64,000 nucleotides of DNA from Candidatus Omnitrophota bacterium (lineage in GTDB: Bacteria > Omnitrophota > Gorgyraeia > Gygaellales > Profunditerraquicolaceae), in contig JAKPTF010000035.1 of the NCBI GenBank assembly GCA_029571225.1, forward strand, positions 81,925 through 145,924, written 5' to 3'. Position numbers and translations under genes: made by a program. The notes under the pieces are model-generated. The model was not told where the DNA came from. It was given only the letters and a program-made list of their open reading frames with translations, and ran no database searches. Numbering within the stretch: the first letter of the stretch is position 1; the number at the start of each line of letters is the position of its first letter. Of this stretch, positions 25,301 through 46,300 are shown piece after piece.

Positions 25301-28300
25301 GCCTTTATTGACTTCATGATGCAGGACCGTAATCTCAAAACCGTACCTGTCGCGGGCATATGCCTTGATATATTCAAGCACGGTCCCTGAATTATCCTGG
25401 CAGCCGTCGTTGACCGCGATCAGTTCCATCCTGTCAAGGGGGTATCCGTTCTCAATGCAGCTGATGATGGTTTTGGCGACGTCGCGCTCTTCGTTATATA
25501 CCGGCAGGACAACGGAAATGAACGGCAGATGATCGTCCGTTCTGGGCAGGACCAGTTTATTGAATCCGGCGCACAAGAAAACTATCGACCAAACGCTTGA
25601 TACCAGAGCGATAAAACCGAATACCGACGAAACAAGCATGATCGTTGCGAACGCGCCGATGAACAGGGAAACCGACAGCGCAAGGCAGAAAGGCTTGATA
25701 AGCCTGATGTTGGGAGTTCCGTCTTCGCCCATGAAACGCGCGGTGATCAGGAAACGGCGGATATATTTTCCCCCGTCCTTGCCCGGAGCGGCGAGGACGG
25801 CGTCGGCGAATGCGTGAGCGCTCGCATAGATGTCGGAGCGCTCGTTGATGCCGCGATACGCGGCCATGAATGCGGTGACGAGCAGCGCACGGCGAAGGCC
25901 TGTGCCGTTAAGCACGATAATAGTATCTTTAAGGCCGGCGGTGAATACGGTAACTGCGGGGATCAATTGACTGGCCAGGTGGGATATCTCGTCGCGCAGC
26001 TGCGGCGGCGCCCGCGCTACCTGCAGGCTGGCGAGTATGTCGGCAATCTCATGATATCCCCTGCTGCGCAACCGGTCAATGACGATCGTTTTCTCATCAA
26101 GGTAATACGTGCTGTAGTACATCGGGTCCATGCGTCCCGCATACGCGTTCACGATGTCCGTCAATTCCCGCTCTTCGTTTTCCGTCAACGGACGGTCGGC
26201 TGCGGCCGGGATGAATGCTGCGCCGTCAAGGTCAAACATGCCCTTGAGAACAACGGCGAGCTCTTCCGGATCATTGACCAGAATAAGCTTTTCTTTCAGC
26301 GCCGCAGGGATCACATCGAAGTTCCTGACGAACGCGCCAGTCGCGCCTTCGAACACAAGTTCGAGCATGTCGAGGTCATTTTCGCTGTCGCCTGCGACGA
26401 ATATACGCTCTGCCGGGATGCCGCTGCGCGCGGCAAGGTCCTTAAGCGCCCTGCCCTTTGCGGTCAGGCCTATATCGATGGCGACGTTATTGTTATTGAA
26501 AACATAGATTCCGTCTTCGCTCAATCGCTGTTCAAGATATTGAACGACCTGCGGCGCGTACTGCCTGTACTCCGGTTCATTGAACTTCAGGGTGCGCGAT
26601 GAACGCTTGCGGTCGTTTAAGACTATTTTGCCCGGCGTGCCTTCCATGACGAGGTCATCGATGAGGCCAAGTTCAGTCAGCTTTTCCTTCACGGCGCTCA
26701 ATATCTTTGCCTGCAACGCTTCGGACAACTCCAGGGAATATTCGATATCCCGCACGAATTCGCACTGTTCTGTGCAATAACCTATATGGCCGCCGAGCTC
26801 GCCCAGGAATATGAGACGCCGAGGATCTCTTATCCCGGAGAGAATGCCGGTTTTTGCGCTCAATTCATCATAGACGAATTTCGGACCCCTGCCTGAAACA
26901 ATAGCGCCTAAAGCGCCTTTGTTAAGAGCCTCTATGATTGCGCCCTGCAACGCAGGAGGCACTTGCTTGAAATAAACGCTATCAGGATCCAAATCCGTCA
27001 ATGTACCGTCGTAGTCGAACGCAATAAGCCACTGCGAGACATCTTTTTTGATACCCCCGTCTTTAATAAAGTCTTTCGGAAGTAGGAAACATTTCAGGCC
27101 TGAAGCAGGAACATTCTGCGGGCTCGTTTTCTGGCTTATTGAAGGAATAATATATATTACTATTGCCGTCTCGTCCACAAAAAGGCCAGATCCATTCTTT
27201 TCACTGAGCTCAAACGCATTGACCGTGGACAATCGGGAACTGAAATAGTGTCGTGTGACCGTAAGCCTTAATTGCAACACTGCGCCGAAGATATTCTTGA
27301 GCACCCTGATTGATATAGAGCCGATGCCGCCGTCTTTCAGGGTGAACGTGCGTTTTGCGCCTTCTTTCTTTGTGCGCTGCCGCTGCGCTTCGGCTGTCGT
27401 ATTGGTAAGCCGCACGCCGTTGGCATCATCAACAGGAAGTTTGGCATCCTTGAGTATGCCTTTCCTGCGCGCGCGATCGACCGCGTCTTCACCGCCGTCT
27501 TTGTACACGGCGACCTTTTTGATCATGGGACAGATATCGATATTCTTAATGTCCTTGGCCACGATTTGAGCGCCTGCTGCACGCAGTTCGTCTTCATTGC
27601 CGAGACGCGCAAGGCCCAGGCCGAAGAACCCGCCTGCGCGCGCCGCCTCCATGTCAGCGACGGCGTCGCCTATAACAAGGGTCTTTGCAGGGAACACACC
27701 CAACTTCTTCGCTGCCAGGAGGAACATATCCGGATGCGGCTTGCCGTGGGTCACATCCTTTGAGGTAACGACAGCTGTAAAATAACCGATCAGGCCGACG
27801 TCCGTCAGAAGCTTGACCGAAACATCGGAGCCGGAGCCCACGGCAAGCGGGACCCCGGAAGCATGCAACCGCTGAATGAGGCGTATAGTGGATTCAAATT
27901 TCTTGATCCCGTCATGCGCCAAAAATTCGAGATAATACTTATGCACGGCCGCATGGCAACGGTCTATTTCATCGCTGCGCAGATCCGGGAACCATTTCTT
28001 TAACGATTCGCGGCCTTTGCGCCCGTTCAGATTATGATCGTAGAATTCAAGATCAACCTCAGGGCCGCCATTTTCTTTGAAAACCCGGTTCCATGCAATC
28101 ACCCAGACGGGCGTCGTATCGAATATGACGCCGTCCACCTCGAATATCACGGCCTCGAATATCCCCACGAGGGCGCCGCCGTCGAGCGCGGCAAAATCGA
28201 GCGGACCCTCGAGTTTCCTGAGTTTGCCCGCCTGCCCCATCGCTTCGCGCATGATATCGCGCGCGTCAATATGGCCCAGGGCTCCGTGAAGCGCGTCGTC

Positions 28301-31300
28301 TTCGGTAAACCTCGAGATCCACGATGACCGGCGATTGTATTTCGAATACACCAGTACCGGCACTTCATGCCACGAATGGCCTTTCATTGCCGCGGGAGTC
28401 GAATGGTCTCCTGTTACGACCAGGACATCCCGGCGGTCTGTATCAAGCAAATCCAGAATTCCTGGCAGTGCTTGGTCCACCTGTTCGATATACCGCACCT
28501 TGGCGTCAAAATCCCCGTCTTCCCCGGCTTTATCCGTGTATTTAAAATGCACATAAAAGAAATCGTGGTCTTCCCAATGATCCCTGACTGCGGCAAACTC
28601 ATCGGCAATGGTCTGGCTGCCTCCGACCGGCAAAAGCTTCATGCCGACGACGCTTGCAATGCCCTTATAGGCGGGATACGTCGCGACAGCCGCGGGGTTC
28701 AATTGATAGATTTCGGTGAACGACGGCAGCTGGACCAGCTCATCCCAGCTGCGAAGAAGAATGCTGTTGATCTGAGATTCGCCGCTCAGCCTTCGGTGAG
28801 CCGTTTCGACGATCTGCCTGACGAGCTGAGCCGTTGATTCTGCTTCCGGGACTTTCGCCTCAGTCAATAACGCGGGCTTGCCTGTCTCCTCAGGGTCAGT
28901 ATCTTTCAGTTTGGCGCTTAAATCCCTGCCGCCGCGCAATATCAATACACCGCGATGTTCCTTGGTCACCTGGATCAGCACCTGGACCTCGCCGAATTGC
29001 AAGCCGGTAAGGCAGCGCTCCACAACCCCGGAAGAAACTTCCGTTGCGACGCGGCCTGCGCGCCGGTCAACGATAATGCCATCCCTTGCCGTTGCGAAAT
29101 TCACCCTCGCGATGACATCGCCGGGCATCAGCTTGATATTATCGCCCATTGCGTCAAGTATGCCCCGGCCCACCGCGTGGATATACGGGTCATAGCCGAA
29201 TATCGCAAAATGGCCCGGGCCGCTTCCCGGCGTGACGCCGGCGCCTGCGATCCGCGAGAGACCGACAGAACCACGGCGGGCAAGTGAATCGAGATTCGGG
29301 TGCGCAGCCTTGTCCAGTTCTGTGCCGGCCTCGCCGGGCATGTGTAAGCCGCCCAGACCGTCCATGACGAGAAAGACGATTTTGGAATCTGTCTTTATCG
29401 AAAGCCCCTTCATTTCCTTGAGATGCCGGTCAAGCGCGTGCTTCTTGACATTACCGCCGTCTTTATGCTCCGACTCTCCTGACTGCTGCGGCTGTCGATC
29501 CCGGGTGATGCGCGCCCTTCGCTCTTTCATTATATCCTTAAGATCAGCGCGCAGATTCCATATAAGCCATGACTGAATAATGACGGTTCCGATACCCAGC
29601 CACAACAGGCCCGCAGTCACATATCCATGGAAGAACGCCGCAATCGCAGGAATGACCACCAACAACACTTCATGGAACGCCATGAGGATAAACGGAAGCG
29701 CATTGAGTATTTTGTCTTCGGTGCCGCCGTCATGTTTCACGCGCGTCTGAATGCCGTACTCAAGGGCAGTTATTGCAAAAACAGGGGCTCTGCGATCAAT
29801 CATACTCAGCGGTTGCGAATATCTGGTCGAGGCAAGAAGCATGGCGGACGCCTCACAGAGAAACGCCGCCGCCCTGGCCTTTGACAGAGTGCGGTAGTTA
29901 TTTCTTGTCTCAATAGTGATTTCGAAAAGCCGGTCATGGTAGCCGGCCGGCAGAATCGAAATCAAGAGCGCATTAAGGTTCAGAAGCCGGCTTATGGCTT
30001 TTTTCGTATTCCCTGCAGATAAATGGCGGAATGCGTTAATACAGGTGAAAACAGCGGCGCCATATTTCACGATCGCGGGAATCTGTTTCTGCGAAAAGTC
30101 CTCGCCCCGCAGCAGCAGCGCATTCGGCAACTCCACTTTCCAGCAATAATTTGACTTCAGATCATGCCTGTTGTACACGTTAATGTCTATGCGCTCGCCG
30201 TTGAATGCTGAGGTGAACCGCCGCGAGCGCTGGCGGTCTTCGGTGATCACGAGCACGTCCACGTCCGAATACGCCGGGCACATGATGAAAGACCCAAAAA
30301 CGTACACCGCCGCTGCGCGTGATCCGGGTTCAAGACAATGAAGCACGTGTTCGACCCCTCCGGTCTGTACGAATGTTGCGATCCGCGCGCAGATCGCCTT
30401 CTGCAGCGATTCATCCACGGTATTGCGCCAGAAATATCTGCCGGCCAATTCAGCACGTATTCCTTCGATCGTGCCGGCCTCTGTGCCGCCGTCTTTGCAA
30501 AGCGCGCTGATATCTTTCATCATGAGACTTGAGCCGATAAAGCCCCTGCGCTTCCAGAATACAAGCTGCTGCTCGTAGGGCGCGCCGCCATCAAACCATA
30601 CATTCGCCTTATCGGATCCCGGATACGGACCTTCGGCGACCTCGATCATCTTATTTGATGCACCGATGAAATCAACCTTGTGGCCGCCAAGGCTCAGGAT
30701 CCGGTCGCCGGCACTGAGCAGCAGCGTATCAACCGGCTTACCCTGGGGAGTATACACGGTGTATTTGACCTCGCCGCGGACTACGAATATCAACTCGATC
30801 CTGGGCTTCTCGATCGGGGTCGGGCAATGCGGCCGGCCGATATCGTTCTGTGCCGGGGACTTGGTGCCGATGCCCAGCGCGAACGCAGGATTCGTCATAA
30901 CCTTGTATTTTTCAAATTCAATGCCGCTGCGCAGGACAAGCGCATGGATCATCCAGTAATAATAGGAATCCATGACAAGCTCCGGAGTGAATGACGCATC
31001 CCGGTTCTCATTGTAATCGGAAATGCTCGGGCTGGTGACAACAGGAAGGTGTTCGGTTTGATATACGATCGACACGACCGACTGCTCTGAGGCAATGATG
31101 GAACGGTATGAAGTAAGGATGGTGGCCAGATCTCCCGCCGACAGCTCGATGTGCCTGCTTTTTTCTTGCGAATCGAACAAACCAAGGGTGACCTTGCCGG
31201 ATTCGACATAAATGACATCCTGGGCCGGCGGGCCCCGGGTCCGCGGCCGGTATTCCTGTCCGGGCTCCAGATCAATGACTTCCAGTTCAACAGGCAGGCC

Positions 31301-34300
31301 CTTTGGCTCCAGAATGACGCCGCGGGAATCCCTGCGGATAACGATTGCCTGCGTTCTGCCGTTATGATCCACAATGGCCTGTCCAAAAGGTTCAACGCCA
31401 GCATTGCCCCCGTCGCGAGGCTTTGTCCTTGCAGCGCCGCAGTTCACGCAACCCTTGAACTCGCGCAATTGGCTTATCCTATCATATGCCTTCAGGAATA
31501 ATTCGACATCCTTCTGCGGCAGAAGCCCAATTTCCACATCAAGCTCATAACCGCTTGCCGGCGCGTGGACCGCGTTGAACATAATACCCGTAATCCTGGG
31601 GCTCAACCCGCGCGCCTCCGCTTGCCTCATGAACTTTGCAACAGCGGTATTCGCATATTTTGTCTGGTTCCATACAACATGCCTGAGGCTTCCCGGATGC
31701 GCACGGTTTATATCGGTCGCGCCCACGACGACGGCTTTGACAAAATCCTGCTCTGCAACGGCAAGCGGGTTTTGACCTTTCAAAAGCACCGTTGCCTCTT
31801 CGACGGTCAGATGGAATGCTTTGAGAACGTCTTCACGCGGCCTCCTCCTGACGAGCATCCACGGCTGCATTTCCTGCCTGCTGTATTCGATCCAGAGGCT
31901 GAAAGCCGCAACGGACAACTCCCCGGGATATAGGTTCTGTATCGCAGCAAACCATTGTTCGAACCGGACGCCGTCTTTGTCAGCAATGATCTGCCTGCCT
32001 TCTTCTATAAGGGCAGGATCGATTATTCCTGACCGCTCCAGTGCATCGAGATTCGTGGTAAATGCCGTATGGCCCCAGCGTTCCAAAAGATGCTGGATGG
32101 TCACGGGAGCGATCGCGCCCTTGAATACCCTGAAGCTTGATCCAAGGCGCTGATTCAGTTTATAATTGAGCGGCTCGCTTAATCCTCCCCTATCCCCGCC
32201 TTTGAGCCAGATAAACGAAATCGTGCCGACCGTGCGCACCAATGCGCCCAGGAGGTTTTCATCTTTATGCTCCGATACAATAATTCCGCCGTCGTTCTGA
32301 CGCCTTGACGCGCCGGCAACAGGCAACCATACCTTGTTGCTGCGGCGCTCAACCCGCGCCTTCAACGCATCCAGCATACTCCATGCCGCGGCGAATTCAG
32401 GTGATTTCTTCCCGCCGTTATATGTTTTACGATATGTTTCAATGTCTGAAACCAAAACCGCCAGTGATGCAATCGCCGATGTTCTCAGACGCTTTGCTTC
32501 CTGTCGGAATTCATTATCGTTAAGCATGATACCACGATACGCGTAAAATTCCCTGTTCCAGCCATCGCTGGTCCGGTCGAGCAGCCGGTCCAGCCGCATC
32601 GCCCAGAAACCGCCGTTCTCTTTCGGCCGCATAGCATAAAATTTCCGGTCCTTTTCATCGCCGACCTCATTGAAACCAAGGCCCCGCACCAGGCCGCGCA
32701 GCGGGCCGAGCGTAAGGTTTTCATAATCTTCCTCGTACGATGCCCGGCTCTCGTCTTCCGGCGACCACAGATAATACAGACACGCCCATTCAGGAGCAAG
32801 GCCGAATAGCGCGCCCAGCTGTGCTGCCCGCATGAATGTCCGGGCGGTGATCTCTTTCAGGACATGTTTGCCGGGGATATACGATATGAAGTTGATCCCG
32901 CTGTTGAACGGATTACACGTAAATATCTTCACGGCGTTATTATCGAGCCTGAAATTCGTCACGCCGATAAGCACGCCGTCAAAGTAAAATCTGCCGCGTA
33001 CCCGGAACGATTCGAGCCGGCCGGTTTCAAGGGACTTGCTGGCCTGTTCAATGATCCATTGCTCTCTGATTTCAGAGGAAACGATCGGCCGTGTAACCGC
33101 CGCGCTCAGATCCAGGCCGCCGTCTTTCTTTCCTTCATATTTGCCGGTGACGATATCAGGGTCTTCACGGTGATCTCCCAGATATCTGGACCGGGCAATA
33201 AACCTGCCGATGACTCCGAACGCATCCATGGAAACCCCCGCGAGCGCTGCAGATATGCCGATTGCCAGAATAATGAACGCCGCAGCCGGGAAGCTGCCGA
33301 TAAGCATGCCTGCGCCGACGCTGCCAGCCATGATCATACCGACGAAAACAATAAAACCTTTTGCATTCAGGCCGTACGGGAATTCCTGCGCCCATTCCTC
33401 AAGCGTCTTTTTGTCCCCGCCGTCAAATGTCTTTTCGAGCAGGGCGAACCATTCCCTCGTGCCCTCCGTCTCACTACCCATCCAGATCATGCGGCAATCG
33501 GTCCTTGTAAGATCAGGCTCTTCCTTATCCACGCTGATAATGTATTCCAACTGGGACTTTGTCACTTGTTCTGAAACCGGTCGGGCATTTCCGCCCTTAA
33601 AGAATTCGTTGCCGTGATAGATATACAAGGCATCCGGCCCGATCTGGGCGATCACATCATTGACTGCAACTGCCTTGTTGACGCCGGCGACGTTGATGTC
33701 AACCGTGACGCCGGTTGCGCCGCCCGCTTCAAAAGCCTCATACGGCAGACGCAGCGTCCGGAAGAAATCGTTGAATTCCGCTGCGATAGACCCGCGCGCC
33801 TCGGGCGGAACCGGCTTGAACGCAAGCTGGAACACCGGTTCATTGGTAATCGCGCGCGTTTTCGCATCAGGCCGCAGCTCTAATCCCGGTTTTCGCCAGG
33901 CGTACGACATGCGGCCGGCGGCACGCGTCCCGAAAATGAATCCCGGATACAGGTATCTATGCGATACTTCGCCTTTTTCATTGATCTTTTGATTTTCCGC
34001 CAGCGCGATATCGACGCTGTGCCAGAGATCGATGCTCACTTTACGGGCGATTGGCTGGATCATTTCGATATGCACCGGATCAACGGTCTTGCCGCTGCGG
34101 TATGAGATATCTTCGATACGCGCGCCATTCTTGAAGGTGAACTTCTGCGCGGCGCCGTTGCCGTAAATAATGAAGTTATCGAAGAGCTCGACCTTGCCCT
34201 GTTCAGCAAGCGCTTTCAACAAAGGCGTGACAATACGCTCGTTCTGTTTCAAGATATCATTGCCGGAGATGATGGCGACAATGAACCCTTTCTCCAGCAT

Positions 34301-37300
34301 CCATATGAACGTGTCCACCAGGCCTGCTTCTTCGATGGTCTCTTTATGATCCTTGCCGGTTTTAAGCAGCGTCTTGTCAACGTCGAAGATCAAGACGACC
34401 TGTTTGCCCTGTCTGCGGTATCCGGCAGCGCGCTCAAGCACAGGCTGTAACCTTCTTCTGATCTCTTTGCGCTCCCCGCCGTCCTTTCCCATGGTCACAA
34501 TTACATTATGGTTGTGCCCATCATAAGGGATTATATTACCTGGGATAAGATTACCCGTCTTTCTATCCTGCATCGATATAACACCGCTGGATACTCCGTC
34601 AGGATTCAGGATTTCAATATAATATGTTTTACCCCTGAATTTTCTTTTTACCCTATATCCAGCCCAATTACTCGGAATACATGGATCGACAACCAAACCA
34701 TCATACACAGGCTTGATCCCCAGCATAAACTGCATAACGGCCCTCAAATACCACGCGGCCGCGCCGGTAAGCCAGGACCCGCCCGCACCCTCTTCTCCAT
34801 TTTCTCCGTTCACGACCTGTGATAAAACATGGGGGTCCGACTGATATTTTATCGGGTCATTCAGGCTGGCAACAGGCGGGAGCACAGCTCTGATGACTTT
34901 GTAGGCGTCGTCAGCACGGCCCGCTTTTAACAAAGCGGTTATTCCCATTGATGCAGCGTGGACAAAACAAGCACCATTCTCTTTAAAGTACGGAGGATAA
35001 AAATAACAACAGCCTACCGGACAATTTTCCTTATCATAGGCAGGATAAAAAAGAAGAAGGCCCGCATTTCTGGATAAACTCATTATAGCGTTAACACAGT
35101 CCTCTTCTATGTCCTGATATTCGCCGCTCAGTATCGCATATACCTGAGACAAAAGATGAACACGCCCTTCCACATTAGTCGAGGTTCCAAACGGGTTACC
35201 GTTATCGTCTTTGCCGGCAATAAAATACTTGCCTTTAGAATCCCAATATTGTCTCGCGGCTATTTCTTCTTTCGCTTTCTGTATCAACTCCTGATGTTTA
35301 GTTTTGTTGATCTGTTTCTCGCTCGCGCTCACAGCATCTTTATCGCTGATCTCGATCAAACAATTGCACATGAGCAGAAACATCATAGCCACCATGACAG
35401 ATTCGGCTTTTGACTTCTTTAATTTTTTAAGGTAATTGTCTCTATTATAGCCCTCGGCGTAGTTGCCCTTATACTTGCGTTGATTGGCATCATTCCAATC
35501 CGCGGTTAGCAAAAGTCCGAAATTTCCCCAGGAGAATTCAATTGCTTTCATGAGATGTTGATATACCGTATCGAGCTTGTGCTTGTTATCCGCATATCCT
35601 GCCAATTTACCCAGTATTGAGATATCATTCGTTTCTCTAATGTACTCATAAATCGCCAGGATCATCCAAAGATGATCGTCAGAGAACGGAACCTCATCAT
35701 GTTCCTTAGGGTCGCTTGTCAATACGTCAAACGCATGAATAGCACTGCCATTCTGAAGATGTGTGGCCCGCAATAGCAATATTATTCTTCTTTTGGCAGC
35801 GGCTGCGTCCAAATGGACGTAACCAATGATATCCTGCCAGGAATCTCTAGTCCCCATACCCCGGCTCTGGCCGGTTTTCAGTTTATCTACGGAACGAGAA
35901 AATATATAATTTGCCCATACCTGCCACTGTAACCAACTGTTGGCCATAAATTCAAGCTCTTTATCTGGAAGCTCACACTGAAATTTCTCAGTCTTCCCAC
36001 TAACATGTTTTTTCAATGCTTCAAAAGCAGTATTAACATTTTCGGGATTCAGCCATTTTTCCGCTTGTTCCCAGCAAACCTCTTCATCTTTTCCAATGCC
36101 CAAAGCAAAGATGATTTCTTTCCGGCAGCCTGCCTGATTTGCCGGAGCCAACTTGATGCGTATCTTATGGCTGCCTACGCCAAACCCGCCTGTTGATTTG
36201 TCATTGCCGGGCAACAACGGATCCTCGACCCACGCCGGACACGATAAGTCTCCTGCGCCGGTAAATCCTTTCAAGCTGGTTTGTACGGCTACGGGGCACT
36301 CGCTTACGGCAAAAAAAGTAATTGGCCATTCCTGCTGGTTTTTCTCATACCAAAGCTTTTCCTTTAACCGGAACTCAGTCTTTCTATAGATTATGCGCTT
36401 ATCCCCGGTTGTAAAGTTACGATATGTAAAGTTCTGTCCCATTTTTTCATTGTCCTGGGGCCCGTTAGGAAATTCGCGCAAGCTCCAGATCATCAAATCC
36501 TTCTCTTGAAAGGATTTATTCCTGAATATGACTTTTTGAATTTCGGGCGCTCCTTTATTTAATGGTATGAATATTACCTGCTCGGTCTCTATCCCATTTC
36601 TTTCAGAGATGATACGGAGATATCCGAATCCAATGCGCGTTTCATACCACTTAAATTTAGCCCTTTCCTTTACGATAGGCTTAATACTCGCCGACCAATA
36701 CTCCTCTGGATTATTCATATCCATTAAGTAAATATACCTGCCTTGAATGCCCTCTTCGCTGCCTCCGCCGGTATATCTGGTAAGCCAATAATTGTTAGGA
36801 TCTTCCAGTGTCCAGGTAAATCCGGACCCATCGGTAAATACGATAGCATGAAGGTATCTTTTGCCGAACTTTACTCCTAAATATGTATAATAACGTGGCG
36901 CATCACGCGATATAACGACATATTCTTTAGTCTTTGTATCAAAATAGCCGACAGCGGATTGCGCAAGCTTTCCGCCGTCTTTTTCGATATCAGCAGGATT
37001 AATATTACCGGCAGGCCCCAAATCATCCGCCACGGTAGATAATGGGGCCTGCGTATCGGTAATATGAGTCTCTGAATCCTTAATATCGACGGCAGGCCCC
37101 AAATCTTCATCCGCCACGGTAGAGAGACCCAGGGCCTGCCTGATAGAAATCAAGACAATTGCCGGAAATGCGATAAAGGCGAGATACAACACAGCCAGAA
37201 GTTGTACTGAAGGATTGTTGATCCTGCTGAGGGAAAGGTACGGAGCGATGATCCTGACAAAATCGTTTTGCTGCCTGACCGCCGGAGGCCCTCTGGATCC

Positions 37301-40300
37301 GGGCAATCTGACGGATTGTTCGGGTGCAATGACTGCATCAGCAGGATGGACAAGGCCTTCCTGTTCGATGCCGTGGTCAAACCGGCAGCTATCTTTCATA
37401 AGCTTTTCGGCAATGACCTCGTTGTGACGAACGGACTTCACATCCCCGCCGTCCTGCTCGCTATTATCGTCATAGGGAGGCTGGGCTGCCAGGCCTGCCA
37501 GTTTTTCCTTAAAAAATTCCATCGTGCAGAAAATGCAATCGATCGCGCCCGATCTCCTCTGAGCCAGAACCATGGTATATGCCTGTGGCTGGGCCTGCAT
37601 GATACGGCGAGCCGCCTCTATCGCTTCCGGATCGGTCAGCACGCAGAACCGGATGGCACCTGACCGGACCATGGCGATATCGTTATAATCATAATAATCG
37701 AGTCTCATGATTTTCTGAGCCGGATCCGACACGTTTTCGCCGGTCGCGCCGTTGCCAAGCAATGCGTGATACAGATCGAATGCATCTTCTTCGCCGCCGT
37801 CTTTCTTGCCGTACCCCCAGTAGTGTGGATCAAGTTCTATGGGCATATACGTCACCGGAGCATATACGATCGGTTTATACACGAATGCGGGGTAAAGCTG
37901 CGGCTTGAACGCCGCTTTGAACAGTTCCCGGTTCTTTTCGGTATCTTTCATGCGCACGAAAACGCCTGCGCCGCCCTGTTGCTGACGCAGCTGTGTCAAT
38001 GCTTCAAACGAGGCCTGCGCGAAGTAATCACGCACCAGGTTGGGGCTGATACGATCCAGATATCCTTTGGCAAACCCGACTGCCGGGTTGCCCGGGATGA
38101 ACATTTGAGGCACCAGTGACACGAACAGAACGAAATAATTCTGCGGCTGGGCCAGAATCTGCTGGAAGTTGATATGCTGGTCGCTGGTGCCCTGCAGGAC
38201 CCAGTCCACCCCCTGGCTGATAAGGAAATCCCGCAGCGAATAAAATTTCTCGCCTTCGAGATAAAGCACGATGACGAACTTCCGGCCGTGCATACGTGCA
38301 AACTCCTTGCCCATGCTCAACAGGGCAACCATGTCGCCTCTGTTTTTGACCGCAGACGGAAACGCGAGCTCGGTGATATTGGTCCGGACCATCCCCCTGC
38401 CCGCCTGAATCCTGGTTTCTTGTACCGCTTCATCAATCGCCCCGGCATTGCGCCAGGCCGCTTCCTGAAGGGCCTTCATTCTGCTTTCAAGCAGGCCTTT
38501 GCCCAGCTCGACGAATGGCTGGCGCAGGTACAGATTCTCCTGCAGGATCCGTGTCGCAGGATTCTTCAAATCATTCAGATCGACATCGGCGCCCGTATAA
38601 CCTGAGGCGAGCAGCGCGCGGGCGATCAGCCGGTCGCCGTTCAGGTTGGTCAGGCCGTAGAAAATGGTAAACAATGCTGCGTAGATGAGGGCCACCTGCT
38701 GCCCGGTCATGCCGGTAAAATCAACGGCAAGCGGAATATTCACCACGTTGCCCGATATGTGCGCGGATGAAAGGTTAATCACCAGGGCATCCGGTTTATT
38801 CTGATAATATTGTTTCTGGTCGGGCCAATCGCGCGCGCGCACGGCTATGAGGTTAATGAACCCTTCCTGCCAGATGCTCTCGTTATTGTTCTGCTCCTGC
38901 GCCTTGCCGAACCAGAACAGATGATCCGGCACGACAAGCGCGATATTCCGGATGCCTTGATCCATGATCATCTCATTGAGGATGTTGGCGCAATGGCGGC
39001 CTTCGAGGACCTGCGCGATGTTAGCGCTCCGCGCCTGCCAGTATTGCTCCGCGTCAAGATCATAGAACGCCAGGAATGTCATCATGTGCAGATCGCCTGT
39101 CCAGCGGCCGGCGACATTGTCATACATGGCGCCGAAGCCGGGAGCGTTCTCTCCAAGCTCATCGCCGAGGCCTGAATTCCTGATGAATGCCGACAGGCGG
39201 CTGACTTCAGGCCTGTCCACAGTTTCGAAAAACATGTTGCCCAGGGCTACCCCGAGGATCGCGGTTACGTCTTCCCGGCTCATGCCCAGCGCGGCTGCGT
39301 TACGCGTAATCAGCTCGATCAGACTCGTTGTGCCAAACCGCGCTTCATCCACTTTGAACAAATCGGCACCCGCCCGCTCCTTGCCGTCGATAAAGTTCAC
39401 CTCATGGAGCGTATTGAGCACGGTATGTGCGAACCGATCGCCGTCGAATCCTCGATCCAGGGCGATATTCTTGAGGAGCGCCTTGAATATATCGATAAAG
39501 ATCATCATGGTTTCATCGGTCGATCCTGATTTGGAGCTGGGGATCACGGCAACCTGGTCCCAGTCGATCTTAAACGCTCTCAGATGCTTCCTGATAAACG
39601 CCTCGTAATCCACGCCAAGCTCGTACGCGCCGACGATCTTGCCCGATGTCGAATCTACGACTTCGAATCCGCTCGCAATGCCCTGGAACGGCGTGTGCTG
39701 GCCGCCGATGCCCGGCTTGATGACCAGCTTGATCGGCTTACCTATAATGCGGCTGCGGTTTTTGAAGAACGCTTTCATGTCGTTGACAGTTTTGATAAAA
39801 GATTCCTTCCCGGTCTCCTTGCCATCCGGACTCCGCGTGTAGTATCCCTGCGAGCCGGTCAGGGCAAAAGAACCGTCCGGCGACGCGCCTTCAGGCACGC
39901 CGTATCCCAATTCGTTATGCCCGCCTTTCATGAACAGTTTGCGGATTTGCTCATTCCCGCGGGCATCAAGCGGCGTGCGCAGCTTTTTACCGACGATGCG
40001 AGCCTCTTCTTTCTCGCCGCCGTCTTTTTTACCGGTCGCAACAACAGCCTTGCCGTTCTCCTCCTGGATCATTTTCAGGATCACCAGTTTGAGGAAATTG
40101 ACCAGCTCTCTGGTATAGTCGTGCGCGCCTGAAATGCAATGCGCGATCTCTTCGATATACGTCGTCAGGAAATCGTCTTCCTTTTGCAGGCGGCTGCGGC
40201 GGATGCCGATCGTGCGCGTTGCCTCGTCCCAGAAGCCCCAGGTCATCATGTCAACCTCTCTGCCGCGTTCCAGTTCCCATTTGCTCAAGGTCCGTTCAAA

Positions 40301-43300
40301 TACGCGGACTTTGAATTGCGGCAGCTCTTTGCCAAGTAACAAAACAAGTTTTCTATTGACGATGAAGGCGGTCGCAAGCATTGCTTTCTCCTGCTCGGTC
40401 AACTCATCCGCAGCCACATATTCGATAAACTGGTGAACCACCTCATAGTCATAGGGTACGCCCAAATGGTCATGCAAAACGGTCCTGATATGTTTGGCCG
40501 TGTTCACAGGGTTATATCCGATGTGGTGCAACTTCGTGCCTATGTCCGGATTCTTAAAGAACACTTTGGTCACCAGCGCAATGCGTTTACCCCGCATGAC
40601 GCTGTCATAGGCCATTTGCCAGACAGGAACGTTAACGGTAAAGCTATCAATGGGGCATGATAATTCGATGCAATCTTCTCTTTCAGACTCGATCAATGCT
40701 TCTTTCAGTACGCGCTCGATTGCCGCCGGAGAGTCGCCTTCGGCAAGTATTCTGCCGACCGCATCTTTTAGCAACTGAAGATTCAATACGTTTCTGTCCG
40801 GAGAGGCCACAAGCTTCTTGTCGAAGAAATTATATCCGAGCAACAACTTGATCCCCTGCCATGCGCTTGCAGGAACGAACAGGTCCTTCACGTATACGGC
40901 AGGATGCAGGAATGCGATCTCGCCGACAGAAGTTTTGGAAAGCGGCTTGTAATTCGGATTCAGGGTCAGCACAAGCTCCGGTATGCGGGCGATGACATGA
41001 CCGAAGCGGCTGTCAAAATCACGGAAAGTGATCTCGGTGCCGAAAATAGAATCCTGGCGGGACTTGACAAGCTCAAACCCGAGCGATTTGACGTTAAACC
41101 GCTTTTTATCCCCGTTCCTGGTTTCAAATACTTCATCCTCGAGCTCGACGGCCTTTGCACTCCAGTTCCTCGAGCGTATCTCGATCGACCTGACATTATT
41201 GCGCAGGCAGCTTGCGACTGCCATTTTCAGACCTTCGCCGAACGAACCCCTTGCTTCCGTGTTCCCGTTCTTGGTCGAATACAACAGGCTTAACAAGTGC
41301 TCATCAAACCCTGCGCCGTTGTCCTTAAAACGGACCGCGACGATTTGGCCGTCGATCGTGCCGTTATACTGTTCATGGGCGGTGCCTTCCGCAACCTGAA
41401 CAGGCACGGGAAGGTGCGCGCCGTTGCCGAAAAGCCTCTTGACCGTTGAAATAAACCCTGGTTTTTGCGCCAAAGCCGACGCAAGCCGTGTATTCGACGC
41501 CAGGTCATGCCACTGCTCCCGACCCTGATTATTCCGGATTGCGACCTCGACATGCACTGCAGTCGCCCCTGAATCCTCATGAAGCATGTTTTGTATCAGG
41601 TCAGTGACCGCGCGTTCGAGCGTCCATGCCTCTGCGCGATAATCGAGCGAGATGGACGTCCGCAATAAAGAATCATGCTCCGCGTAATATTCGTCAAAAA
41701 CCGTCGGCACGGATTTATCCAGCAAGTACTCTATGCCATACGTGATGATAACTTTCCTGCCGCTTTGAGATATCGCTTTGACCATCTGCCCGACTTTGGG
41801 CACTGCCAGGGAAGTAGCCGGCATAATGACAGCGTTCTTTCCGTAGACATCATAAAGCGCGTGCGCCCAGAGAGACCTGTCTGTCCATGTCCAGAAATGT
41901 CTGAATTTCTCAAACGCCTCGTTCTCAAAGACCCCTTGAGCCGTTTTTCCTGACATCCATTCATTGGTGCACGCCGCGATCACAGTCCTCATCACCTCGG
42001 GATTTTTCGTATTCCTTAACAGGTGGTGCACCGCGCTCAAGATCCTGTAGGAAGGCAGGGAATCCCGGTCCCGATTCAGATCATTCTTCGCATCCTGGGA
42101 AATAAGATTATAATCGAACAACCCGCCGGCGACTTCCATTACGAACATGCCGCTGACATATATCCTGGATGGCCGTCCCTGCGCCTTCCGGATCATATCG
42201 CCCGTTTCTGCGTCACGGTCCAGTATCTTCAGGTCATCCCGGAGATACAGGATCAGGTTATCCGCGCGCTGGGCTGTCTTGAAGAAGGCCTGATCAAAAT
42301 CCGTTATAATGGTCCTGGAACCGCGGATCATGGGGCTCGGTTCGATCTCATAACAGAGTTCGTACGTAGAGAGCTCATTGGCCTTGCCTTTGTTCAAAGT
42401 CAGCGGCTCAAGCCGCGCAGTTGCCTTCCAGTCCTTCGAATAGAATGTCAGGCCGAATCCCTTGCGCATTGCGACCAGCGCTGCGATCTTAAGCCCTTCG
42501 CCGAATTTGCCGACCATTTCTGCCTGGTTCTCTTTGGTGCTGCACAAAAGCGCAAGCAGTTCTTTGTCATACCCGACGCCGTCATCGCGTATCTCGATCG
42601 CCTCGACATCCTGCCTGCGCAGGTTCTTTGCATAACGCAGCGGAACCATCCGGCCCTTGTCTGTGCGGAACAGGACCTCGATCTTGCTGCCCATGGCATC
42701 TGACGGCAGATGGTTCTGCACCAGGTCGATCATGATGCGCAGGTCCGGCCAGTTCACGTTATAATTGGTGGTTATATTGGTCCGCATCAGGGCCTTGCCC
42801 CTGGCAGCGCCGCCGTCGCGAAAGGATCCGACCGATGTTCCGACATTTTTCGCGCAAGGTTTCAACACCACCATGCCCAGAGGCGGCAGGGTAAATTCTG
42901 CGGAGGCAGGGAAACCGTGCGCCGGACGGTCAACTGCCGCAATCCGGCCGAGATTTCCCACATTGCTCCCCCCGTACACGGCGGCATCGCTGTTAAACGT
43001 TTCCTCCCATTCGCCTTCCCCGGGCAGCCCAAGGATGTAGCCGTAGCGGGGAACCGGAGTAAAATTCAGGGCAACCGCCAATGTATCCTGTGGCTTTTCG
43101 CCGAAACGCAGGTACGCCGCCACGGCGTGCTGCTTGTCGTCACATGCGATCCAGCGGAAACCCCGCGATTCGAAATCATATTGGTGCAGGGCAGGTTGAT
43201 CGCGTTCCAGCCGGTTCAGGTCCCTGACAAACCGTTGTATCGCCCGGTGCTCGGGATATTCCAGCAGCCACCAGTCGAGGTCCTTGTCATGGTTCCATTC

Positions 43301-46300
43301 TTTGTACTGTCCGAATTCCCCTCCCATAAACAAAAGCTGCTTGCCCGGCATGGTGTACTGCAGACCAAGCAACAGGCGCAGGTTGGCGAACCGCTGCCAC
43401 TGATCACCCGGCATCTTTTCCAGCAATGAATGCTTCAGGTGCACCACTTCGTCGTGGGACAAAGCAAGCACGAAATTCTCACTAAAGGCATATGCCAGGT
43501 AGAAGGAGAGCCCGCCCAGATAAAAACCACGAAATACCGGATCAAGCTTGATGAACTCCAGGGTATCGTGCATCCATCCCATTGCCCATTTCATGGAAAA
43601 GCCCAGGCCGCCTGCGTACACCGGCCGGGAGACCATCGGCCAGGCGGTGGATTCTTCGGCGACGGTGAGGATGCCCGGATAACGCGCGTGCACCACCTGA
43701 TTGAACTGCTTGAGAAAATGCACCGCTTCGAGATTCTCCCTTCCGCCGTACACGTTAGGTATCCACTGTCCGTTTTTGCGGGAATAGTCGCGATAAAGCA
43801 TCGAGGCTACCGCGTCCATGCGCAGGCCGTCGATATGGTACTTCTGCAGCCAGAAGCAGGCGTTGCTGATCAGGAAACTGCGCACCTCATTCCTGCCAAG
43901 GTTGAACACCGCGGTGCCCCAATCCGGATGCCTGCCTTCCCGGGCATCGATATGCGAATACAGTTCGGTGCCGTCAAAATAGATCAAACCTTCTTCATTG
44001 AGCGGGAAGTGCGCCGGTACCCAGTCCATCAATACGCCGATCTCTTCCCTATGCAGCCGGTCCACCAGATACATCAGATCCTGCGGGGTGCCGAAGCGAG
44101 AGGTGGGCGCAAAAAAATTGGTCACCTGGTATCCCCAGGACGGAACAAAGGCATGCTCAGTAACCGGCAAGAGCTCCACGTGGGTGAAGCCCATGTCCCC
44201 GATATATTCCGCCAGCTCATCCGCGGTCTCCCGATAAGTCAACCAGCGATTATCCTCTTTCCTGCGCCAGGAACCAAGGTGCATCTCGTACACGGACATC
44301 GGGCTTTCCAGCGACTGACGTGCCGCACGGGTATCCATCCACTCCCTGTCCCGCCAGTCGTAATTCAGCTCCCAGACAATCGATGCGGTGGTCTCGGGAT
44401 GATCCTTTGTTGGAAACTGGTTAAAAAAGGCAACTGGATCTGATTTCAGACGGGACTGGTGGTCAGCGCCAAGCACGTGGAACTTGTACAACGCTCCCAT
44501 GCCCACTCCGGGAATGAAAGTCTCCCAGACCCCTGCGTAGGTTTTGGACATTGGCGCGACGGATCGATCCCATGAGTTAAAATCCCCGCACACGCTCACC
44601 TGCCGGGCATGCGGCGCCCACACCGCAAAATGCGTCCCCAGCAACCTGCTGCGGTCGAGTACCACATGCGCGCCCAACTTGCGGTAGGTGTCATAATGCG
44701 TTCCCTCGACCATGAACAGGTGCTGGTCGAATTCAGTAAAACGCGGCAGAAGTCCTTCCTCGTTTCCGCCATCCTGCTTAGCAGCGGAACCGTCCGGTTG
44801 CGCCTGCGGGGCAGTGCGCGACATCCGGATCGTCAGTACGGATTTCTCCGGCATGTTCAGGCTGATCCGACCTCCATCGTTGAATTGAGACGCAGACCCC
44901 GAACCTTCACCCGCCACGGTAGATTGACCCAAGGCCTGCGTTATCTCAATCGGAACAAGAAGCCGAACGCGTTTAATATCATATGTCAATCCTGCACGAC
45001 CCTTGACCTCAGCAAGAAGAGCTTCCAAAACTTCCAGTGAATGCCGGTTTATCAAAGCTATTTCCCTCTCGTACCCGGCCTGATTAAGCCACATGCCCCG
45101 GTAGACATAGAACCATGCGTACCAGTTACGCTCGGCAGCCGCAAAAAGATCTTCCGAGGACAAGGCCCAGGCCCCGCTACTATGCTTGCATTCCAGGGCA
45201 CGCAAGGCCGAATCGAGTAGCATGTGCCTGTTTATCAGGCGCAATCCCAGTCCGCGACTAAGCGTCCGTAATGGCAGGAGCAAATTGTCTTCATAGTCAG
45301 GATTGTAATCCGCGCGATGCTCATCTTCCACTCCCCAGATATAGTACAAAGTCGCCCAGGGGCTGTCCCATCCCAGGGCCTGGCCGATCTGTATCGCCCG
45401 CAACAGCGTGCGCAGGGTGATCTCCTTGCCCAAATGCTGACGGGGAATATAGGAAACCAGATTCTTCCTGTCCCAGCCCGGCGGGTTGCACCCGTAGATC
45501 CGCGCGCCGTTCTCGCTGATGGTGACGTTGGTCAAGCCCACTGCCCGCTCCCCGGCCCGGAAACCAGGCAGCGCATAAATCTCGATAAAGTCCTTCTTCT
45601 CATAGTCCGGACCGACGCGACGGATCATCCATTCCTCGCGGATATCCGAAGACCGGATAGCCTGCTCCTGCGCCCCACCGTCCTTGCCATGTCTGTTTTT
45701 CATTATCTCAAACAACCTCGTTCGAAGATCCTTTTCGGTCAGGCACGCTTTCAACATATCAAGATCGTCTTCGCTAAAGACTGAAGACGCGCTTGAATAC
45801 CCCCTCAACTTATACTCACCATACTCTGCCTTCGTAAAAACGAACGAGGATTCATCGAATATCTGGATTTCAAAGTACCGGTTAGCATACGAACGGGAAC
45901 GATCAAAAGGAAATCTTTCCGGCATAAAGAAGAAGCAATTTGCCCGGGTCGATCCGTTTCTGGTAACTACCCTTTTCTCTTTCAAGCGGAAACCCGCCGC
46001 TGCCATTTTTGCACAGATATCGTCTATCCCAATCTCCCGTTTCAGTATTCTCATCCCTATGTAATCGTTCGCAATCTCTGCCCCCCGGCAGAGCAGTCCA
46101 AAGACATACGCATAACATGCATCGGGATTTTTTAACTGCTCCGAATTTAACGGCACTCCGTACTTCTTGTTCAGGCGCAGATAAATACTCAAGGCTCCCT
46201 TGATTCGATGGTCTATCCTAACAATTTGTTTTGTTTCTCCAGTCAAAGCGCGCGCGATATCATCACGGATCTGGCAACTGACACCTTTTGGATCGATATA

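Follow-up and report, generated by a model that had tools for sequence, protein, structure and literature searches.

The window analysed here, a stretch of 64,000 nucleotides from contig JAKPTF010000035.1 of a Candidatus Omnitrophota bacterium, is an internal 64-kb piece of an Omnitrophota giant gene of the 'multi-enzyme metabolic' (Archaeovorin-like) class, the product of which carries a recurrent Asp-Gly-Gly (DGG) motif at junctions between its modules. Judging from its distribution and conservation, this motif is a protein-level feature under purifying selection, and many of the segments that it bounds are complete and probably functional enzymes joined by very short, disordered linkers. 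We propose, with a confidence somewhat short of even, that the motif in the form [K/R/Q]-D-G-G (KDGG) is the cleavage site of a Gly-Gly-specific peptidase and that the giant product is a polyprotein, a reading that is plausible but unproven.

A single reading frame spans the window

Frame 0 of the reverse complement runs for 63,999 nucleotides without TAA, TAG, or TGA, corresponding to 21,333 codons on the minus strand.

2-64000, minus strand: reading frame, uninterrupted and open at both ends; internal part of a giant Omnitrophota-type gene

The start and the end of the gene both lie outside the window, and 21,333 codons is a lower bound for its size. Because this frame fills the window and extends past both of its ends, a listing of open reading frames (ORFs) under the bacterial code contains no long ORF on either strand; the short ORFs that it gives for the plus strand are spurious. 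The window contained no tRNA gene and no Rfam family, and a viral-contig scan returned no match.

The papers that define the giant class use lengths of over 20-90 kb, and the window is free of stops over at least 63,999 nucleotides. Pfam and NCBIfam identified the domain set of this class, namely GT5, GT1, methyltransferase, glycoside hydrolases, NUDIX, HAD, and GHKL ATPase, and the enzyme content comprises two GlgA modules, GlgB, a GH94 phosphorylase, GDE-like and amylase-family enzymes, ApgM, HAD phosphatases/mutases, and NUDIX. The frame also holds membrane-embedded GT2 blocks and short membrane-spanning spacers; a crude hydropathy method gave approximately 40 peaks indicative of transmembrane helices, with clusters at amino acids (aa) 380-2050 and 12680-14060 and within five spacers flanked by DGG. 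For the N-terminal membrane region, Omnitrophota metagenome-assembled genomes (MAGs) were the best match (42-58% identity), followed by those of Elusimicrobiota (36-45%), and one related fragment, P0153, is annotated as Candidatus Omnitrophica.

DGG is enriched, lies outside domains, and behaves as a protein-level motif

DGG is the most over-represented of all tripeptides in the frame, with 37 occurrences observed versus 6.7 expected from composition (z = 11.7), while 2,000 residue shuffles gave a mean of 6.8 and a maximum of 16. KDGG alone occurs 15 times versus 0.35 expected, and K, R, or Q directly precedes DGG at 24 of the 37 sites, giving the consensus [K/R/Q]-D-G-G. Lys or Arg occupies this position, which would be -4 relative to a cleavage after Gly-Gly, at 57% of sites; apart from it, the 15 residues on each side of the motif contain little information. 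A preliminary description of this DNA had linked domain edges to DGG positions, and homology-based parsing agreed with this, none of the 37 DGGs falling inside the 23 homology envelopes, which span 29% of the chain (P = 3e-6). The related tripeptide EGG is absent from the frame (7.2 expected) and occurs once in L010, a relative described below; this absence could be avoidance of a near-cognate site, or chance.

The preliminary description had singled out the following region for DGG-to-DGG distances that match the lengths of stand-alone enzymes.

27491-44773, minus strand: region of interest, aa 6410-12170; 19 DGG sites listed, including two just outside
DGG positions (aa) in the region: 6410, 7062, 7993, 8734, 8850, 9008, 9840, 10193, 10293, 10570, 10863, 11137, 11170, 11424, 11514, 11940, and 12168
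DGG positions (aa) just outside the region: 12223 and 12314

The DGG coordinates given there proved exact, as they mark the first bases of the Asp codons even though the feature lies on the minus strand, and the spacings were reproduced: 652 aa (44773-42817), 832 aa (36979-34483), 426 aa (29461-28183), and 228 aa (28183-27499).

At the nucleotide level, 26 of the 37 sites are encoded by GACGGCGG, a sequence with 26 in-frame copies, a single out-of-frame copy, and a single copy on the other strand. GAC encodes 73% of the Asp residues that precede Gly in this gene and GGC encodes 66% of the Gly residues that precede Gly, and the preference for GAC and GGC at the motif is close to this codon-context background, which largely explains the choice of codons. 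All four synonyms are used for the last Gly of the motif. A DNA- or RNA-level motif was rejected as the primary cause on the grounds of frame and strand specificity, synonymous variation, and the codon-context explanation. As GGAGG is encoded at only four of the 37 sites, DGG sites are not ribosome-binding sites, and the idea of Shine-Dalgarno sequences with internal starts was rejected on this count together with the lack of a start codon after the motif.

Several DGG-bounded segments match complete enzymes end to end

The preliminary description had also held that the segments between DGGs are complete enzymes. This stood for four modules, GlgB, GH94, ApgM, and HAD, which are covered end to end by their families, while the bicupin and nucleotidyltransferase assignments are weakly supported.

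42818-44764, minus strand: GlgB (1,4-alpha-glucan branching enzyme) module, aa 6413-7061
34484-36970, minus strand: GH94 cellobiose/chitobiose-phosphorylase module, aa 9011-9839
28184-29452, minus strand: ApgM-type cofactor-independent phosphoglycerate-mutase module, aa 11517-11939
27500-28174, minus strand: beta-phosphoglucomutase-family HAD module, aa 11943-12167
30593-31405, minus strand: 'bicupin' module, aa 10866-11136; weak assignment (Cupin_2 E = 0.0019)
29732-30484, minus strand: putative minimal nucleotidyltransferase module, aa 11173-11423; weak assignment (Pfam Polbeta E = 0.017)
40025-42808, minus strand: GHKL ATPase-like segment of 931 aa with two such domains (HATPase_c_3 E = 6e-9, HATPase_c E = 5e-7)
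37802-40015, minus strand: segment of 741 aa with no family assigned and no Pfam match
32294-33115, minus strand: module without family, aa 10296-10569; paralogue of aa 6110-6333

The GlgB module aligned with positions 5-618 of 619 of the NCBIfam equivalog NF003811 (904 bits versus a cut-off of 741) and with residues 14-618 of 620 of PDB 8zqa_A (E = 4e-218), and the GH94 module aligned with residues 3-811 of 811 of the Clostridium cellobiose phosphorylase PDB 3qde_A (E = 4e-106), the result for chitobiose phosphorylase 1v7v being similar. ApgM matched positions 5-401 of 403 of NF003160 (481 bits versus a cut-off of 468) and was 49% identical to P0002, a stand-alone enzyme of 401 aa, over residues 7-399 of the latter. 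The HAD module covered positions 2-184 of 186 of TIGR02009 with 118 bits, which is below the cut-off of 153, and positions 2-210 of 216 of NF053653. The distances from DGG to the edge of homology on the N- and C-terminal sides, respectively, were 12 and 13 aa for GlgB, 4 and 1 aa for GH94, 7 and 7 aa for ApgM, and 5 and 14 aa for HAD, and 10 and 18 aa separate the ends of the two GlgA modules from the DGG that follows. An AlphaFold model of aa 11480-11980, based on an alignment of 47 sequences, had a mean predicted local distance difference test (pLDDT) score of 85.8 with a core above 90; scores fell below 50 in the N-terminal linker up to the first DGG and again over the second DGG and the residues that follow it.

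The translated nucleotidyltransferase module contains an 'FGS-x10-DVD' motif (GS-x10-DxD). Homologue searches with the bicupin and nucleotidyltransferase stretch found no stand-alone homologue and one fragment only (P0153), AlphaFold returned an unusable model for it (pLDDT 35, alignment of two sequences), and a PDB sequence search of aa 10194-11423 found no match. PDB sequence searches likewise gave no match for the 931-aa GHKL segment or for aa 7996-8736, the 741-aa segment, which contains a 'SKSGSTDET' motif that we presume to be PGI/SIS-like; this assignment was not confirmed. The module at aa 10296-10569 is 35% identical to aa 6110-6333 (E = 2e-41, internal BLAST), both copies begin directly after a DGG, and its orthologue in L010 has a conserved KDGG.

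In GC content at third codon positions (GC3), the GH94 module (0.46) differs from its neighbours (0.6-0.7), with a downstream change-point at aa 9834, six codons from DGG 9840, suggesting that it is a compositionally foreign cassette. Across DGG units, GC3 was 0.46 for GH94 (34475-36970), 0.48 for aa 12226-12316 (27053-27325), 0.52 for the methyltransferase unit (16637-17863), 0.53 for the N-terminal block (55433-64000), and 0.60-0.72 for most others, a spread that suggests modules of different ages or origins.

Relatives keep the motif and gain, lose, or swap modules at it

Two relatives carry the motif: L010, an activated-sludge contig with 7,109 codons without a stop that shares modules with the window at 44-65% identity, and P0001, a JGI fragment 66% identical to the window. 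In L010, DGG is again the top tripeptide (18 versus 2.8 expected). Eleven DGG sites are positionally conserved between the window and L010, nine of these 11 pairs with synonymous differences, and two further orthologous sites read GGG and NGG in L010 through replacement of Asp by Gly or Asn, so that Gly-Gly is the constant part of the motif.

Comparison of module content revealed that L010 lacks the bicupin, 33-aa, and nucleotidyltransferase segments, each break falling at a DGG, and that the HAD module is absent whole from both L010 and P0001, again with breakpoints at DGG. The GT2 block (~3,000 aa) and the methyltransferase segment are also missing from L010, the breakpoints being DGG 12742 and DGG 15786. 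GH94 is absent at the corresponding position of L010: the interval between two anchors common to both holds GH94 and a HAD-like module in the window versus CofD-like and PMM-like modules in L010. The latter lie in the DGG unit next to one holding a complete citrate synthase (aa 277-651, bases ~830-1955; Pfam positions 1-356 of 357), which sits between DGG 270 and DGG 675. In P0001, both DGGs around ApgM are kept and the second leads directly into the module that starts at DGG 12314 in the window; P0001 thus lacks the HAD module and two short segments, and the break falls exactly at the motif. These comparisons indicate that modules behave as evolutionary cassettes whose gain, loss, and swap occur at DGG, and the statement in the preliminary description that the protein is not domain-shuffled does not hold, as modules have been swapped, gained, and lost between relatives.

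Spacers, multi-enzyme units, and other parts of the frame

Not every DGG unit is a single enzyme. Eleven DGG-to-DGG segments are only 33-158 aa long, and five of them are, by hydropathy, membrane-spanning spacers with a DGG on both sides; other units combine several enzymes.

36980-37444, minus strand: membrane spacer with one strongly hydrophobic helix, aa 8853-9007; homologous to L010 aa 659-788
33125-33415, minus strand: membrane spacer with two hydrophobic helices, aa 10196-10292
29462-29722, minus strand: membrane spacer with two helices, aa 11427-11513; conserved in L010
17864-25768, minus strand: DGG-free segment of 2,635 aa, aa 12745-15379
51056-53575, minus strand: NUDIX/IDI-like and GlgA-1 unit, aa 3476-4315; DGG-bounded
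1382-11986, minus strand: multi-enzyme DGG units, one with TreY/amylase-like and GlgA-2 (aa 17339-18872) and one with GT5-like, GDE, and amylase-like domains (aa 18977-20873)

In P0001, the place of the spacer at aa 11427-11513 is taken by a different, GNAT-like-looking sequence. The 2,635-aa segment contains two membrane-embedded GT2 domains (NodC/PgaC-like), a CE4 deacetylase-like domain, and a GH9-like domain, and as it is free of DGG, units can be large multi-domain blocks. No DGG occurs in the first 2,853 aa of the frame. GlgA-1 covers positions 2-475 of 477 of TIGR02095 at aa 3815-4302, and the unit that it forms with NUDIX has a DGG-bounded single-helix spacer on each side. The joints between NUDIX and GlgA, between the TreY-like domain and GlgA, and between GDE and amylase lack DGG, so that not every enzyme is bounded by the motif.

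Further modules were noted elsewhere in the frame. One DGG unit (45674-48559, aa 5148-6109) combines NUDIX, a HAD-IIB-like domain, and a RelA/SpoT-like stretch (TIGR00691 E = 6e-5), which hints at nucleotide-signalling functions among the sugar enzymes. Two paralogous cupin-like modules of unassigned function, 39% identical to each other, lie at 53813-55432 (aa 2857-3396) and ~49425-50842 (aa 4387-4859); they have the metal motifs H-x-H-x4-E ... P-x4-H-x3-N and the signatures 'IDWTFKD' and 'MPWPKNI'. The cupin-like module has 32 relatives in a representative library, all within multi-module proteins and without DGG enrichment. A word-index homologue search with the module at aa 2854-3394 gave no match. 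A P-loop guanylate-kinase-like module is duplicated in tandem at ~55450-57300 (aa ~2230-2850); the joint between the copies lacks DGG and the second copy ends in KQDGG. At least four copies of this module occur in L001 and at least two in L002, both of which are distant relatives. Finally, a multi-pass membrane region at ~57700-62900 (aa ~380-2100) with 'DRDHFF.PSD', 'QNRFGGLVLD', and 'HWTEKLTLLQNFD' motifs has a glycosyltransferase-like look and no Pfam match. This region is common to L006-L009, ORFs of 4,700 to over 7,200 aa from Elusimicrobiota and Endomicrobiaceae MAGs, and related giant genes therefore exist outside Omnitrophota.

Distant relatives share junctions without DGG

The conserved membrane region identified distant giant ORFs in Omnitrophota (L001-L005) and Elusimicrobiota (L006-L009) MAGs. 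DGG is not enriched in any of these nine: L001, L002, L003, L005, L006, and L007 have none, and L004, L008, and L009 have one to three, which is near expectation. L001 has the NUDIX-GlgA unit (42% identity over 875 aa) together with its junctions, and its sequence at the window's DGG sites is unremarkable. In P0153, the bicupin (45% identity) directly follows a GlgA module without a DGG in between. As these junctions exist without the motif, DGG is no scar of the original fusions, contrary to its description as a standard connector left where whole genes were fused. The motif is instead lineage-specific: one sub-lineage carries it, and it was either added to joints that already existed or lost from such joints.

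Other lineages seem, from the sequences compared, to have recurrent junction motifs of their own. Frame +1 of L002 (DOGZ01000009.1, UBA10174) contains [KR]-Q-D-P-x-R-[PG]-[IL]-P-G-Q-A four times (aa 4314, 4714, 6029, and 7103); this motif flanks the guanylate-kinase-like module, precedes the NUDIX region, contains an acid-labile Asp-Pro bond, and may be the lineage-specific counterpart of KDGG. In the multi-module proteins P0122, P0125, and P0128 (1,400-3,200 aa), modules are separated by K-[AST]-S-S-[AS]-G, with all four positions common to P0122 and P0125, the two longest; the three proteins also have an apparent signal-peptide-like N-terminus and a C-terminal end '...ALIAA'.

Proposed cleavage at KDGG and alternative explanations

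In the mechanism that we propose, [K/R/Q]-D-G-G in short disordered linkers would be recognised and cut by a double-glycine-type cysteine peptidase, and the giant product would be a precursor cut into approximately 40 units: single enzymes, a few multi-enzyme units, large membrane machines, and small membrane peptides. We infer cleavage because an invariant, exposed tripeptide stands in otherwise free linkers and is avoided inside domains, because modules are dimeric enzymes, and because the membrane topology of an intact chain would be implausible. The motif is found between units, at 37 sites outside homology-defined domains, and is kept in L010 and P0001. Permanent tethering by ~10-aa linkers in a chain of more than 20,000 aa is difficult to square with the homodimeric state in which citrate synthase and GH94 phosphorylases work, and if the uncut chain were threaded through the membrane by its single-helix spacers, GlgA-1 and GlgB would be separated by it. 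In-frame loss or exchange of modules may in addition be favoured by the repeated GACGGCGG microhomology.

A more far-reaching form of this proposal, which we hold more tentatively and consider possible rather than probable, is that of a true cellular polyprotein, in which a dedicated double-glycine peptidase would cut a precursor of more than 21,000 aa at approximately 40 KDGG sites into free enzymes of central metabolism, with each Omnitrophota lineage having its own junction code and protease. GlgA, GlgB, cellobiose phosphorylase, phosphoglycerate mutase, and, in the relative L010, citrate synthase would be among the freed enzymes, alongside membrane machines and small membrane peptides, and the codes would have evolved with the protease to give KDGG here, KQDPxRPxPGQA in UBA10174, and K[AS]SS[AS]G in a third group. 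If true, this would constitute a virus-like expression strategy by which a free-living or predatory bacterium keeps a metabolic pathway at a fixed 1:1 stoichiometry.

Several observations weigh against cleavage at KDGG. No peptidase domain was detected in the window's 21,333 aa (Pfam E <= 0.01), the gene's ends lying outside it, and none was found by relaxed Pfam searches in the scanned upstream parts of L001, L002, and L010; C39, S8, and SecA-like domains specifically were absent from the window at E <= 0.01 and, in the tested segments without a family, at E <= 5. The classical substrate pattern of C39 peptidases is lacking, as Lys or Arg is at -4, Asp is at -3, and no periodic hydrophobic residues lie upstream. 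Enzymes are joined without DGG at several places within the frame (NUDIX-GlgA-1, TreY/amylase-like-GlgA-2, and GDE-amylase), and relatives of the whole gene family (L001, L002, L007, P0123, and P0153) do without it. Cleavage at every site would release odd products, such as peptides of 33-55 aa and isolated transmembrane hairpins. The arguments from EGG depletion and from topology are themselves weak, hydropathy being a crude guide.

We consider it rather unlikely that the chain instead stays intact as an uncleaved, membrane-tethered mega-enzyme, a 'metabolon on a string' that works like eukaryotic AROM, CAD, or FAS or bacterial PKS/NRPS, with KDGG as a flexible hinge or turn that insulates the folding of modules. 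Gly-Gly is flexible by nature, the linkers are short and disordered, the window has no recognisable protease, junctions shared with motif-free relatives work without the motif, and published proteomics maps peptides to a related giant ORF with no evidence of processing so far. However, one would not normally expect a generic hinge to stay an invariant tripeptide at 37 sites (18 in L010) amid freely varying linkers; the motif is also missing from domain interiors, EGG is depleted, and the dimeric citrate synthase of L010 and GH94 fit permanent tethering poorly. A short, exposed, and strictly conserved motif could also be recognised by something other than a protease, such as a docking or scaffolding partner or a modifying enzyme, or could act as a timer or breakpoint through a labile Asp-Gly bond (isoaspartate/succinimide). 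Asp-Gly is the most isomerisation-prone of Asp-X pairs, and the junction motif of L002 holds Asp-Pro, the classical acid-labile bond. We nevertheless regard this explanation as improbable, since no candidate partner is known, Gly-Gly is more conserved than Asp (GGG and NGG at two orthologous L010 sites), and Asp is missing from the third junction motif, K[AST]SS[AS]G.

That DGG is mainly a DNA-level feature, with GACGGCGG microhomology as a recombination or insertion scar for in-frame entry and exit of cassettes, would account for breakpoints of module insertion and deletion exactly at DGG, for the use of this sequence at 26 of 37 sites, and for the end of the GH94 cassette, foreign in its GC3, at a DGG. 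It is made highly improbable by the restriction of 26 of 27 same-strand copies to one frame, with one copy on the other strand, by the free choice of the third codon and the near-background GAC/GGC preference, by synonymous variation at orthologous sites that keep the D-G-G residues, and by the junctions of motif-free relatives; a role in DNA exchange may be a secondary consequence and not the reason for the motif's maintenance. We give very little credence to the remaining alternative, in which there is no single chain and transcription or translation starts internally at the junctions, as in an operon without stop codons. The modules are indeed gene-sized and complete, but GGAGG is encoded at only four of the sites, neither Met nor another start codon is conserved behind the motif, Met is also missing where residue 1 of stand-alone homologues aligns, the window yielded no RNA-processing element, and Seymour et al. 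report no catalytic RNA in giant ORFs.

Relation to known systems

Giant multi-enzyme proteins of Omnitrophota form a published class (PMC10066038), described as 'Archaeovorins' (West-Roberts et al. 2023, 10.1101/2023.11.21.568195) and as a 'multi-enzyme metabolic cluster' class; the latter preprint lists 5,761 Omnitrophota proteins of at least 10,000 aa, the longest of ~147,000 aa (10.64898/2026.06.07.730766). The 2023 study proposed that C39 or S8 peptidase domains within the giants cleave them, and it noted that no cleavage points were known (10.1101/2023.11.21.568195). C39-like domains have been reported near the N-termini of giants, including an architecture cluster of 24 proteins with C39 (10.64898/2026.06.07.730766). 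The earlier remark that a polyprotein-like organisation would be very unusual for a cellular system thus needs qualifying, as giant multi-enzyme ORFs of Omnitrophota had already been described (10.64898/2026.06.07.730766) and their cleavage proposed (10.1101/2023.11.21.568195). No description of DGG, a polyprotein, or a linker motif was found for these giants in the literature searched, including the text of both giant-protein papers, so the junction motif, its conservation, and its breakpoint behaviour appear new; what was already known is the existence of the giant ORFs and the suggestion that they are cleaved.

KDGG is the first concrete candidate for sites at which Omnitrophota giants, if they do not act as single chains, might be cut into pieces. 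A junction motif under protein-level selection gives checkable coordinates, for example for metaproteome peptides, and can be used to split giants into units for structure prediction. Complete housekeeping enzymes, including the citrate synthase of a relative, can evidently be captured as in-frame cassettes, and module turnover at the motif bears on how such giant genes grow.

The window resembles the Archaeovorin and multi-enzyme class in being a single ORF of tens of kb with many transmembrane helices and with Omnitrophota MAGs as closest relatives, in its domains (GT5 starch synthase, GT1, methyltransferase, HAD, NUDIX, GHKL ATPase, and glycoside hydrolases), and in that post-translational cleavage has been hypothesised. 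It differs from the published architectures in that these include C39, S8, and SecA-like domains, none of which was seen in the window, and in that no junction motif was reported for them, whereas KDGG lies at unit boundaries here, in one sub-lineage only. AROM, CAD, FAS, and PKS/NRPS likewise place several complete pathway enzymes on one chain, but they are uncleaved, have 2-10 activities, and have linkers without a single repeated tetrapeptide. The C39/double-glycine systems of bacteriocins and PCAT cut after Gly-Gly, and C39-like domains are reported in the same giant class; their classical substrates have N-terminal helical leaders with hydrophobic residues at -4, -7, and -12 and are cut once during export, in contrast to the ~40 internal candidate sites here with Lys or Arg at -4 and Asp at -3.

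By analogy, MARTX toxins and viral polyproteins cut at X-Gly-Gly would be the nearest functional counterparts. The MARTX proteins of Vibrio are secreted toxins of 3,500-5,300 aa that are cut after Leu upon activation by inositol hexakisphosphate in the host cell. They share the 'beads on a string' arrangement and the exchange of cassettes between strains, their effectors being freed by an internal cysteine protease that cuts in short linkers; they differ in carrying toxin effectors versus the housekeeping-type metabolic enzymes, KDGG, and absence of a recognisable protease from the window here. Viral polyproteins are cut by papain-like proteases at X-Gly-Gly, and polyubiquitin is processed by deubiquitinases. 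The LXGG motif of the coronavirus protease PLpro is named in text from PMC10849127. Like the window, these precursors consist of head-to-tail units with a short motif ending in Gly-Gly that is conserved amid varying flanks; unlike viral polyproteins, the window belongs to a cellular gene five to ten times longer that encodes metabolic enzymes and has Asp at P3 of sites that are candidates for cleavage only.

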